Of a stretch of 64,000 nt of DNA, positions 4,123-7,324 are shown one piece after another. The DNA lies in contig CAXWPH010000011.1 of NCBI GenBank assembly GCA_963666055.2, positions 1 to 64,000 on the forward strand, written 5' to 3'. A model generated the notes under the pieces. The model searched no databases. It was not told the DNA's origin and worked only from the letters and a program-made list of their open reading frames with translations. This DNA comes from Acidobacteriota bacterium. Its GTDB lineage: Bacteria > Acidobacteriota > UBA890 > WLXD01. Position numbers and translations under genes: made by a program. Each line of letters begins with the position of its first letter. Position 1 is the first letter of the stretch.

Positions 4123-4247
4123 AGTTTCTTCCGAGCCCGTCTAGTGGCGGGCAGCCTCCAGTTGCGGGCGCGGCCGGCGAAGCCAGGTTGGCGCGAGCGT
4201 TGCGCACGACGCAGCGCCTCATGACAACAGTATCCGTCGGTAGTGGG

Positions 4248-5125
4248 TCACTTTGAGATTGGATTGCCTTCGCTCCAGACTTCGCCGGTCGCTTCGGCAT
4301 GCTCCAGAAGCCGAACGATGTCGGAGATCTCCCACACGGTGCTCGCCACGCCTGCCTCCATTGCCGGGGTGACGCGCAGCGTTCGATGAATGCGGCAGAA
4401 GTTGTAGTGCATGAAGTGCAAGCTGACCGCGTGGGCCAGGTTCTCGACCTTCTTGCTGAATGCGTTCGTCAACCTGGTGAAGCGACGCATCGACATTCTC
4501 ATCGTCAAATTCGCTCTTTCGACGTAGGACGTGCTGATTAGCGCAGCGTCGGGCGAGCCGACCACGGCCAGCTTCTTGGTGCCGTTGCACTTCGCCGGGC
4601 TGTATCGCTTCTGCGGCTCCGGGTCAGCGCCATAGATCTTATGGAGCTGCGCGTAGTCGATCTCATGCGCGAACGCAGCCTCAACCGCTTCCACGTACAT
4701 TCGGTGACCGTCCGTCGTGAGCTGCACCCGATGCGACAGACGACCCGCTAGATCCTGCATGAAGGCAGTATCCGTAGCGAGATCACGCGGCCCGATGCGC
4801 CACGTCGGAACGATCTTGGTGTCCGCGCAGATCGACGTGAACGTCCACACGTCGCCAAAACCAAAGCGGCCGCGCTTGTCGTCGGGAACGTTCTTGGCCT
4901 TCGAGTAGCAGAAAGCCCCCAGATCTCGTCAGCCTCGATCCGCTTGCAGGGAAGGTCGCGCAGTACGGCGTCTTGGTAGGCAGCGCATACGGTGCCGAGA
5001 TCGACCAGCAGCTTGGTGACGGTGTTCTTGGAAACGCTAGTCATCCGGCAGGTGGCGCGGATCGAATTTCCTTCGACCAACGCGCTGACGATCTGCGTCC
5101 GCTTCTCGGTGCTTAGCTTGTTCAT
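4248..5125 (-). pseudogene. IS1-family DDE transposase, frameshifted at ~4915
   Basis: HTH LVEGNSIRATCRM, DEIW, LTTDG and STSYVERANLTMR..RFTRLTNAFSKK motifs. The frame breaks in TGGGGGCTTTCTGC (expected DEIW.FCY). Confidence 0.88.
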
Positions 5126-5135
5126 GGGAGACATT

Positions 5136-5222
5136 ATGCTTGACCGGTCATGAATAGTCAATGTGCTTGCTTAAGGCAAGCATCTTTTTTATACTTACCT
5201 TGTTGCTTGCAGTAAGCAAGCA
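5136..5222. promoter_or_regulatory. three TGCTTG..CAAGCA-type palindromes in the divergent promoter region
   Basis: ATGCTTGACCGGTCATGAAT (5136-5155), TGCTTGCTTAAGGCAAGCA (5164-5182), TGCTTGCAGTAAGCAAGCA (5204-5222). Confidence 0.65.
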
Positions 5223-5242
5223 CCGGACTAGGAGAACAGAAC

Positions 5243-6244
5243 GTGAAAAAGCAGGAACTGAAGAAACGCGCATCCATGGGTGGCAAGGCGAGAGCGGAGA
5301 AGCTGTCGCCAGAAGAGAGGTCCGAGGTCGCCCGTGCTGCTGCCGAGGCGCGACACGGAACCACGACGCCGAGAGCGCTCTGTGGAGCGCCCGACAAGCC
5401 GCTGAAGATAGGGAGCATCGAGATTGCCTGCTACGTCCTCGAAGACGGCACTCGTGTGCTGTCCCAGCGCAGCCTTCAAACCGGTGTCGGCATGTCCGTT
5501 AGCGGCGGCAAAAGCGGCGAGCAGCGGTTAGTCACTTTTCTGCGGTCCATGAAGTCTAAAGGCTTAGAGGTCAGTGACTTAGTGGCGCGCATCCGGAAGC
5601 CCATTTATTTCGTTCCGCCCGGCGGCGGCCGGTCCGCCTACGGCTACGAGGCGACCGTACTTCCGGACCTATGCACCGCAATCTTGGACGCCCGAGACAA
5701 GGGACTACTCCAGCCGCAGCAAATCCATCTGGCCAAGCAATGTGAGATTCTCATCCGCGGATTTGCTCACGTCGGGATTATCGCGCTAGTTGACGAAGCG
5801 ACCGGCTACCAGGACTTAAGGCAGCGCAATGCTCTGGCCGAGATCTTGGAAGCGTTCATTTCCGACGAACTGCACAAATGGGTTCTCACGTTTCCACCAG
5901 ACTTCTACAAGGAGATGTTTCGCTTGTGGGGGTGGAACTACTACGCAGGCTCTGTGAAACGCCCTGCAGTGGTCGGCAAGCTGACGGACCATCTCGTCTA
6001 CGAGCGACTAGCACCCGGCGTGCTGGAAGAGCTTCGACACCAAACTCCACGGAACGACAAAGGGCACCTCAAGACACATCTCCACCGGAGACTAACTCGC
6101 GAAGTTGGACATCCGCGTCTTCGAGAACACTTAGCCGCGGTCGTCGCCCTCATGAAAGCTTCGCCTGACAAGGAATGGTTCATGCGGGCGATCAACGAGG
6201 CGCTGCCCAAGTACCACGAGACTATGCGCTTACCGCTCGGATAA
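5243..6244 (+). CDS. P63C domain protein with N-terminal basic GGKARA motif
   Basis: CYVLEDGTRVLS, AHVGIIALVDEATGYQ, FPPDFYKEMFRL and LVYERLAPGVLEEL are typical of phage P63C proteins. Confidence 0.88.
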   Translation: MKKQELKKRASMGGKARAEKLSPEERSEVARAAAEARHGTTTPRALCGAPDKPLKIGSIEIACYVLEDGTRVLSQRSLQTGVGMSVSGGKSGEQRLVTFLRSMKSKGLEVSDLVARIRKPIYFVPPGGGRSAYGYEATVLPDLCTAILDARDKGLLQPQQIHLAKQCEILIRGFAHVGIIALVDEATGYQDLRQRNALAEILEAFISDELHKWVLTFPPDFYKEMFRLWGWNYYAGSVKRPAVVGKLTDHLVYERLAPGVLEELRHQTPRNDKGHLKTHLHRRLTREVGHPRLREHLAAVVALMKASPDKEWFMRAINEALPKYHETMRLPLG

Positions 6245-6246
6245 CC

Positions 6247-6504
6247 TCAGTCATCGGCTTGACGCTTCCAACGCGCCTCAGCCGCCTTCTTGGCGATCTC
6301 GCTGCGACGCGCCTTCGTCAGTTTCTTCGCCCGCGCTGGGCCACCCTTGAGCCCGCCGAGTCGCCCAAGAAGCTTTGCGGCTTCGCTGCGTAGAGCATCA
6401 TCATCCTGCTGATGATCATCATCGGGTTCGTCCTCCGTAGCCTGCGCTACGATCTGCGCGGCGAGGACGTTGGGGTCAGCGTTGTTGCTTGAGCGTTTAG
6501 GCAT
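6247..6504 (-). CDS. small basic protein (GGLKGGPARAKKL..RRSEIAKKAAEARW)
   Basis: 85-aa ORF, GGAG RBS upstream, convergent with P63C; lies inside the IS. Confidence 0.8.
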   Translation of the reverse strand: MPKRSSNNADPNVLAAQIVAQATEDEPDDDHQQDDDALRSEAAKLLGRLGGLKGGPARAKKLTKARRSEIAKKAAEARWKRQADD

Positions 6505-6609
6505 GACTCCATTGTCGCGAACGCACGTCCTGTTCGCAAGGTGTGGTCAACCGCCGCCAGATTCAAACTGACCCACCACCTATCCGTCAGCTGCTGCTCG
6601 ATTGCAGTG

Positions 6610-6974: not shown

Positions 6975-7160
6975 CCGCGCTTCGCTAAGGTCCGCTATGG
7001 AATCTGGGGTTGAAGACGGCTCGGGTGGGGAGGCTTCCGGAGCCCACGATTCCCGAGAGGATCCGAATTGCGGCATACACGTGGCATTTCGGCCAGACGC
7101 AGAAAGCCCCGGTGACCAGCACTGGGATGTAAGTTGCTGAGCCACCGGGACTTACGCCAG

Positions 7161-7210
7161 TAGCGGGGGCAGGATTTGAACCTGCGACCTTCGGGTTATG
7201 AGCCCGACGA
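7161..7210 (-). tRNA. 3' fragment of tRNA-fMet(CAT), probable att site
   Basis: TCGTCGGGCTCATAACCCGAAGGTCGCAGGTTCAAATCCTGCCCCCGCTA: GGG/CCC anticodon stem and T arm present; D arm and 5' acceptor strand absent. Confidence 0.88.
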
Positions 7211-7324
7211 AACCCCTTCGCAAGTGCAAGCTGCGTACCTTCCGTCAGCGCACCTACGTCAACTACGATCGTCATGACCTGATGCGATCCGAGCCGCGCA
7301 CTTGATTAGCAGGCACATGATGCT

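Follow-up and report, generated by a model that had tools for sequence, protein, structure and literature searches.

A cargo-carrying insertion sequence (IS) of the IS1 family lies near the start of contig CAXWPH010000011.1 from an Acidobacteriota bacterium (assembly GCA_963666055.2), of which positions 1 to 64,000 of the forward strand were analyzed (the window). Read directly from the sequence, the IS1-like insertion spans 2,342 bp, with an 8-bp target-site duplication and terminal inverted repeats, and holds a transposase gene (5125-4248, minus strand), a gene for a P63C-domain protein (5243-6244, plus strand) and a gene for an 85-amino-acid (aa) basic protein (6504-6247, minus strand). We consider it likely, from sequence comparisons, that this is a frameshifted cargo copy in which a short motif common to both passenger proteins reads TGCTTG half-sites, the small protein repressing its own gene and the transposase, and the P63C protein repressing itself. 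The features are as follows.

4231..4238: left copy of the target-site duplication, TATCCGTC, read directly and from an empty-site contig
4239..4256: terminal inverted repeat on the side of the transposase 3' end, read from the sequence; includes the transposase stop codon
4248..4916, minus strand: C-terminal part of the IS1-like DDE transposase, in the frame after the shift; 83% identical to an intact sibling on contig C2
4916..4920: C5 run that breaks the transposase frame; the C2 sibling reads through as one open reading frame (ORF)
4919..5125, minus strand: N-terminal part of the transposase (helix-turn-helix, HTH), from domain search
5133..5161, minus strand: predicted transposase promoter TTGACT-17-CATAAT, likely leaderless, with the ATG 7 nt past the -10 box
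5136..5155: operator predicted for the small protein, within the transposase promoter; its form in the family is ATGCTTGA-N4-TCAAGCAT, from comparison
5164..5182: predicted P63C operator 1, TGCTTGC-N5-GCAAGCA, over the candidate P63C -35 box and 2 nt from the transposase -35 box
5167..5195, plus strand: candidate P63C promoter TTGCTT-17-TATACT, picked by eye and below the promoter-scan threshold
5204..5222: predicted P63C operator 2, just past the candidate start site
5243..6244, plus strand: P63C cargo gene, 333 aa, with AGGAGA at 5230-5235 and the P63C domain at residues 201-293
5276..5359, plus strand: 28-residue motif in P63C, residues 12-39, with putative specificity positions V29 and A34
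6247..6504, minus strand: 85-aa small basic protein, a predicted repressor and standing equipment of the element family
6265..6348, minus strand: 28-residue motif in the small protein, residues 53-80, with putative specificity positions I70 and A75
6485..6504: predicted operator over small-gene codons 1-7 (encodes MPKRSS), with silent-position constraint and a codon-6 switch
6511..6539, minus strand: candidate leaderless small-gene promoter TTGCGA-17-GACAAT, picked by eye, 6 nt before the ATG
6563..6580: terminal inverted repeat on the side of the small gene, read from the sequence
6581..6588: right copy of the target-site duplication, TATCCGTC, read directly and from an empty-site contig

The two 18-bp terminal repeats, GGTAGTGGGTCACTTTGA and GGTGGTGGGTCAGTTTGA, both start with GGT and are complementary at 16 of 18 positions. 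The empty site, seen in one sequencing run (X6), is a contig in which 4230 runs on into 6581, the 8 letters at the joint matching either flank. A first-pass annotation had described an element with these boundaries and three genes, all of which we recovered; it had missed that the transposase is frameshifted. The letters of the C5 run are the same in contigs of runs X1, X2, X3 and X6, which represent at most three samples from two studies and of which X1 and X2 may be the assembly's own source. A long-read error was considered and ruled out, since short-read contigs show identical letters. Because the frameshift letters recur in contigs of four runs, the copy in the window is probably non-autonomous.

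An intact sibling occurs in the same genome as three tandem copies, with a transposase 83-84% identical, the same small gene and an ATPase cargo. These copies lie head to tail on contig C2 (L001:899-8574; one intact element at C2:907-3461) with a 2,555-bp period and single 8-bp duplications between them, and the cargo is a 399-aa AAA+/STAND-like ATPase without the motif or P63C-type sites. Short-read contigs at C2 include a tail-to-head joint at ~2-4x the flank depth, plus an empty-site end, and the array fits tandem amplification or circle intermediates. The products of the sibling could work in trans on the broken copy in the window.

The first-pass annotation had also noticed a motif of ~30 aa in both passengers and four related palindromes near the gene starts. 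Both proteins carry the quoted motif, over which PHROG 2384 matches each of them, and all four palindromes are in place. The AlphaFold model of the small protein (mean predicted local distance difference test score 74, predicted template modeling score 0.41) has helices at residues 11-23, 30-49, 56-61 and 64-83, the last two of which cover the motif; residues D10 and A15 in its N-terminal helix do not vary among small proteins. No Pfam family covers the motif, and neither sequence nor fold searches found a solved relative of it. A known fold for the small protein was rejected, as matches were generically helical (best Z 5.8), and its PDB sequence matches, to artificial HEAT-like repeats, fall outside the motif. 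The cargo protein matches the P63C domain (Pfam PF10546, E 4.7e-31, 107.7 bits against a gathering score of 26.1) and PHROG 2384 (E 8e-102), and consists of the N-terminal motif, a weakly supported KilA-N/Bro-N-like middle domain and the P63C domain. Its AlphaFold model has helices at 3-20 and 23-38 followed by an alpha/beta domain; the model has no PDB match at E <=0.001, and the best E of the core profile against PDB sequences is 0.14. Elsewhere the motif is doubled, or fused to HTH or other domains (L059, L090, L091, L097, L152, L304), and several of these genes have related palindromes upstream.

Relatives fall into at least 7,841 clusters for the small protein and at least 7,938 for P63C, with ~8,000 candidates scored for each and loci drawn from metagenome, viral and genome collections. 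The P63C set started with 180 rows, was reduced to 171 by removing four degenerate or cut-motif loci and those with <200 nt upstream, and to 159 by removing near-duplicates. The comparison of P63C genes with and without the motif, set beforehand as the refuting test for the first-pass claim that motif and palindrome belong together, found TGCTTG at -200 to -15 in 103 of 138 motif-bearing genes and in 0 of 21 motif-less ones (Fisher p 1.6e-11), against 19% and 6%, respectively, in shuffle controls. The half-site is thus enriched upstream of motif-bearing genes and is not equally common before motif-less ones. On a FastTree phylogeny of the P63C core, with the motif removed, 11 independent pairs gave 10.2 in the same direction and 0 in the opposite one (median p 0.002). 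The top 7-mers found upstream of P63C without a prior were ATGCTTG and TGCTTGC. Among 13 phage records picked from 40 listed, five genes with the canonical motif have 2-6 copies of TGCTTG and three motif-less genes have 0, 0 and 1; the annotated start of SPN9CC placed its upstream region outside the count. In 235 motif genes other than P63C, a set that overlaps the other small-protein and transposase-promoter sets, TGCTTG occurs in 105 of 209 with canonical motifs vs 3 of 26 with variants.

Half-sites usually number two or more per P63C gene and are variously arranged, and the base following TGCTTG is C in 256 of 285 sites. The N7 spacing proposed as a P63C signature occurs in only 2 of 138 P63C genes, and we rejected it as a family rule. 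It is a local feature: the whole 5.73-Mb genome has just two copies of TGCTTG-N7-CAAGCA, each of them before P63C, against ~0.25 expected from half-site frequency.

The half-site is likewise typical of the transposase promoter in elements that have the small gene, in line with the first-pass proposal. At our locus the palindrome fills the spacer of a sigma-70-type promoter that the first-pass annotation had missed, with 2 mismatches to the family form in one arm. Among 52 relatives aligned on the right arm, the distance from the -10 box to the transposase ATG is 6-8 nt in 43, and the left arm has <=2 mismatches in 21 when placed symmetrically, vs 0-3 if shifted by 1-2 nt. Of 121 elements whose sole motif gene is a small one, 90 have TGCTTG <=62 nt from the transposase start, vs 1 of 23 in which no motif gene was found (four short loci left out; L375, one of the 23, holds a diverged motif), and in 5% of shuffle controls. 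The following base is A in 99 of 113 transposase sites, to which overlap with the -35 box contributes, and the P63C sites of the family differ from the small-protein sites at this seventh base (TGCTTGC vs TGCTTGA) and in having several half-sites. Of 24 elements with a divergent motif-bearing P63C gene, 23 have the P63C-type site TRCTTGC upstream of the transposase, as against 9 of 121 with other cargo.

At the start of the small gene the predicted operator overlaps coding sequence, and the silent positions there are constrained. Relatives have a -10-like hexamer 6 nt before the ATG in 31 of 49 cases and a Shine-Dalgarno-like sequence in 3 of 49. Across 49 genes starting M-x-x-R-S-[SR], Ser5 is encoded by TCA in 46 of 49 (background 10%), Ser6 by AGC in 39 of 40 (background 29%) and Pro2 by CCT in 28 of 42 (background 15%). 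These biased silent codons indicate that the DNA word is conserved, and not the peptide alone. A second class of small proteins (GPKG type) goes with a palindrome that is 2 nt tighter and centered on the -35 box (9 of 14 vs 0 of 33 in the first class), and TCAAG[CT]A is kept in 0 of 14. The N6 spacing ascribed to the small protein holds for one class; the second uses N4.

When P63C genes were sorted by their commonest half-site, variants of the site proved to be tied to residues of the motif, and the motif-site relation claimed at the outset extends to covariation of residues with bases. The positions concerned are column 17 (V29 in P63C, I70 in the small protein) and column 22 (A34 and A75), which lie five residues apart on the long predicted helix. 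In the P63C set from which the rules were derived, so that the counts are in-sample, S or A at column 17 (instead of I/V) goes with T[GA]CGTG in 9 of 11 genes vs 23 of 126, N or Q there with TGCT[AG]G in 6 of 7 vs 24 of 130, and V or I at column 22 (instead of A) with TAC[TG]TG in 12 of 16 vs 20 of 121. Column 17 ranks first of 311 protein columns for base 4 (0.32 bits vs 0.10 for the next; 7 variant genes), and column 22 ranks first of 308 for base 2 (mutual information 0.28 vs 0.13; 8 variant genes).

The column 17 relation also appears at a distance. Small proteins with S or A at this column are found with T[GA]CGT in the transposase promoter in 9 of 9 cases vs 13 of 127 (62 nt), or 8 of 9 vs 6 of 113 in the last 45 nt, two members of this set (L023 and L402) being close kin. 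That promoter lies 0.2-2 kb from the small gene whose residue its base follows. Within the small gene itself, codon 6 switches to CGN in 6 of 6 such genes vs 1 of 28. Double variants with S17 and V22 (L029, L342, L407 and phage 933W) have TACGT sites. Phage 933W, with TACGTG, fits the code, as does phage Kuwabara (V22), with TACTTG twice. Two further variants were noted: with Arg at column 17 (L226, L258, L261, L266, L488) repeated TAGATA/ATCTTGC sites replace TGCTTG, and a motif starting AGK goes with TGCTA[TA]C sites (4 of 4). Each of these may be one clade.

Several observations weigh against this reading. Coding DNA, often the tail of an IS1595-type transposase, lies upstream of 12 of the 21 motif-less P63C genes, which for this reason have no promoter of their own; the other 9 are also without the site, though some look broken. 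Conversely, 35 of 138 motif-bearing P63C genes have no TGCTTG, many of them with code variants. The canonical motif occurs with two TGCGTG and one TGCTTG in phage Barco, and with TCACGCA in L037. TGCTTGA may overlap the -35 sequence TTGAC, and TCAAGCAT overlaps the -10 box, so the promoter counts are inflated. Correction for relatedness weakens several tests: motif gene and site on the transposase tree give 9 pairs, none opposite (median p 0.06), and column 17 changes 10 times on the P63C tree (pairs p 0.03-0.125) and 6 times in the in-trans comparison (3 supported pairs, p 0.25). Neither in P63C after tree correction (p 0.25-0.5) nor in trans (2 of 4 vs 24 of 132) does column 22 reach significance. 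Finally, the P63C middle domain is a second candidate DNA-binding domain.

We propose that the 28-residue, two-helix motif is a portable, sequence-specific module that would read TGCTTG half-sites. Its long helix (residues 64-83 of the small protein) would enter the major groove, where column 17 (I70/V29) would specify base 4 of the half-site and column 22 (A75/A34) would specify base 2, and the remainder of each protein would set the oligomer state and the spacing of half-sites. A protein bound between the -35 and -10 boxes, or across a leaderless start, would keep RNA polymerase out; in this way the small protein would repress the transposase gene along with its own, and a motif-bearing P63C protein would be its own repressor. 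Such a circuit could hold transposition low, with one repressor pool serving all copies that share the code, and a cargo gene could bring its own dose control into any slot. Cross-talk between the small protein and P63C is possible at this element, because the two share the canonical code and 2 nt separate the end of operator 1 from the -35 box of the transposase.

Could the motif bind these sites to another end? It might activate, or the small protein might mainly be an accessory of transposition, for example one that binds the transposase through its N-terminal helix. The invariant D10 and A15 of that helix are not accounted for by DNA reading, and the left arm of the transposase operator is often decayed, with more than 2 mismatches in 31 of 52 relatives. 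However, the sites lie within the -35/-10 spacer or span the start codon, positions typical of repressors, and stand-alone P63C genes without a transposase have the same sites. We regard such an activating or accessory role as unlikely.

A second alternative is that other domains read the sites, namely the HTH of the transposase and the KilA-N/Bro-N-like domain of P63C, with the motif a non-specific basic tail. InsA of IS1 represses its own promoter, and the middle domain of the P63C model weakly resembles Bro-N, KilA-N and antirepressor proteins (Foldseek E 0.005-0.1). Yet motif-less P63C genes retain the middle domain and have no sites, motif-less elements retain the transposase and are mostly without sites, site bases are best predicted by motif columns 17 and 22 and not by core columns, and the base in the transposase promoter tracks a residue encoded 0.2-2 kb away, all of which makes this explanation very unlikely. 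That no protein reads the palindromes, which would be by-products of promoter sequence, MPKRSS codon needs and shared ancestry, is very improbable: TTGA and CATAAT do belong to the -35 and -10 boxes, the relatives do not count as independent, and some of the tree-corrected tests fall short of significance, but silent positions at the small-gene start are constrained, the second small-protein class shifts its palindrome to -35 at a spacing 2 nt shorter (9 of 14) and abandons TCAAG[CT]A (0 of 14), and no tree-based test runs in the opposite direction, the P63C presence/absence test remaining significant after tree correction.

Of 301 sampled Acidobacteriota genomes, 50 contain the transposase family, whose elements usually run repeat, small gene, variable slot, transposase, repeat. 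Both ends were found in 32 relatives, 24 of which have 8-bp duplications. Among 102 non-redundant elements picked by transposase alone, 74 have the small gene and 3 a divergent P63C gene. The cargo slot has a median length of 1.2 kb (131 elements), and its content varies across related elements and often resembles defence genes, bearing out the suggestion of an exchangeable slot. A PADLOC scan of 146 of 161 slot ORFs in 101 loci (10 P63C proteins and 5 short ORFs left out), in a sample that leans to viral contigs, gave matches at <1e-30 in 36 loci: PD-Lambda-2 B (16), RmrA (13), HEC-04 (2), and one each of SoFic, IetA, PDC-S13, PD-Lambda-5 and type I restriction-modification. Single HTH/M78-type components account for 29 of the 36; complete pairs occur in five loci. 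A two-gene cargo recurs in L047, L071, L085, L115 and 12 more slots, and consists of an HTH/M78-peptidase protein like PD-Lambda-2 B and a partner of 110-200 aa that neither Pfam nor PADLOC matches; it is a candidate toxin-antitoxin or defence pair.

The P63C protein of the window has no PADLOC match, and an anti-phage role for it, suggested by association, is doubtful. P63C genes stand directly behind a phage repressor or regulator gene in Kuwabara, Midgardsormr38, SPN9CC and Si3 (L494-L497). The gene directly before the motif-less P63C genes L201, L230, L233, L236, L242, L273 and L276 has a tail that resembles an IS1595-family transposase; this would be a second IS family with P63C cargo, here under read-through control.

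The element itself likely resides in an island, whose boundary is probably marked by an attachment-site remnant at 7050-7211 of the window. This segment comprises a tRNA-Met 3' half and downstream DNA, and over 162 nt it is 93% identical to contig C14, where the locus is intact; a scan of the window with ARAGORN gave no tRNA. An IS3-family element lies near the contig start (1582-2867), with an HTH_Tnp_1 ORF followed by an rve ORF.

A wider proposal, which we advance tentatively and with slightly less than even confidence, is that the motif represents a new, minimal DNA-binding class of ~28 residues with a near-modular code, serving thousands of IS elements, accessory prophage genes and fusions as a plug-in autorepressor. 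Code variants would prevent cross-repression between co-resident elements, and on a defence-shuttling IS the motif would set the dose of a BstA-like abortive-infection P63C protein. Should the repressor hypothesis proposed above prove right, at least 7,841 and at least 7,938 clusters now labelled hypothetical or histone H1 would gain a function, IS1-family biology would gain a dedicated repressor, and single-residue specificity switches would be found in a very small DNA-binding module. The operator logic predicts cross-regulation among elements and prophage genes of one cell, and the variable slot offers a list of candidate defence genes, P63C among them.

How do these components compare with known systems? 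The cargo protein has the domain of P63C-domain proteins (PF10546; Mx8 p63; PHROG 2384) and a structural match to Mx8 p63. The part of PMC6536676 available to us assigns no function to the P63C domain, and a link between the N-terminal motif of P63C and upstream sites was not found in the literature searched. BstA, an abortive-infection protein with a KilA-N-like domain and a cognate DNA element (10.1101/2020.07.13.199331, seen in part), is similar in its KilA-N-like N-terminal domain, in being a prophage accessory gene behind a repressor and in a DNA element overlapping its start; the position of the P63C genes behind the repressor in the four phages is that of bstA in BTP1. However, as far as that source goes, BstA is without a P63C domain, and its aba element, made of direct repeats, serves immunity and is no palindromic operator. 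The hhalign probability for P63C against BstA is 2.6-22%, over the N-terminal part only (best 22%, 114 columns), an Atlas score of 0.86 is a lead only, and no BstA model is among the PADLOC matches of 65 P63C proteins. With no significant full-length similarity, membership in the BstA family was rejected.

The motif resembles KGG and LEA_5 (GsiB, Em) repeats and NUMOD3 in being short, basic, Gly-rich and helical, and one small-protein cluster bears the database label 'histone H1 family protein' (Atlas). None of 90 small proteins matches KGG, LEA_5 or NUMOD3 at E up to 1, although short motifs escape HMMER filters; among 65 P63C proteins, LEA_5 is found below threshold in 3 (best E 0.009) and KGG in 1 (E 0.44). 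No description of the motif, its site or this circuit was found in the literature searched, a search that left aside the original P63C paper, the IS1 subgroup review and ISfinder. Elements of this general type, IS that carry passenger genes, have been described before; the DNA-binding module is probably undescribed.

The element shares with the IS1 family its GGT-start terminal repeats, 8-bp duplication and HTH plus DDE transposase. IS1 is the best family for all 47 intact relatives in Pfam and NCBIfam. All 47 match DDE_Tnp_IS1 (the sibling at 26.7 bits, cut-off 24.1), and D66, D138 and E202 are invariant. Against the NCBIfam IS1 equivalog NF033558, the best family for 47 of 47, the sibling scores 53 bits (cut-off 100), which marks a divergent subgroup, and the single-ORF ISMhu11-type members are presumably the subgroup for comparison. 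Whereas IS1 of E. coli has insA and insB with a programmed A6C frameshift, the relatives here have one ORF without programmed frameshifting, and the C5 break is peculiar to this copy. Control here likely falls to a distinct small protein, whose predicted operators are not part of the terminal repeats, unlike in IS1, where InsA acts on the repeats themselves. With passenger genes inside the terminal repeats of one IS, the element also resembles transporter IS (tIS), IS derivatives that take along the passenger genes between their terminal repeats when they move (PMC9330008). The part of that paper available to us describes no such dedicated regulator for tIS. In the elements studied here, by comparison, one passenger is fixed (74 of 102) and comes with matching operators, and the second slot is variable.

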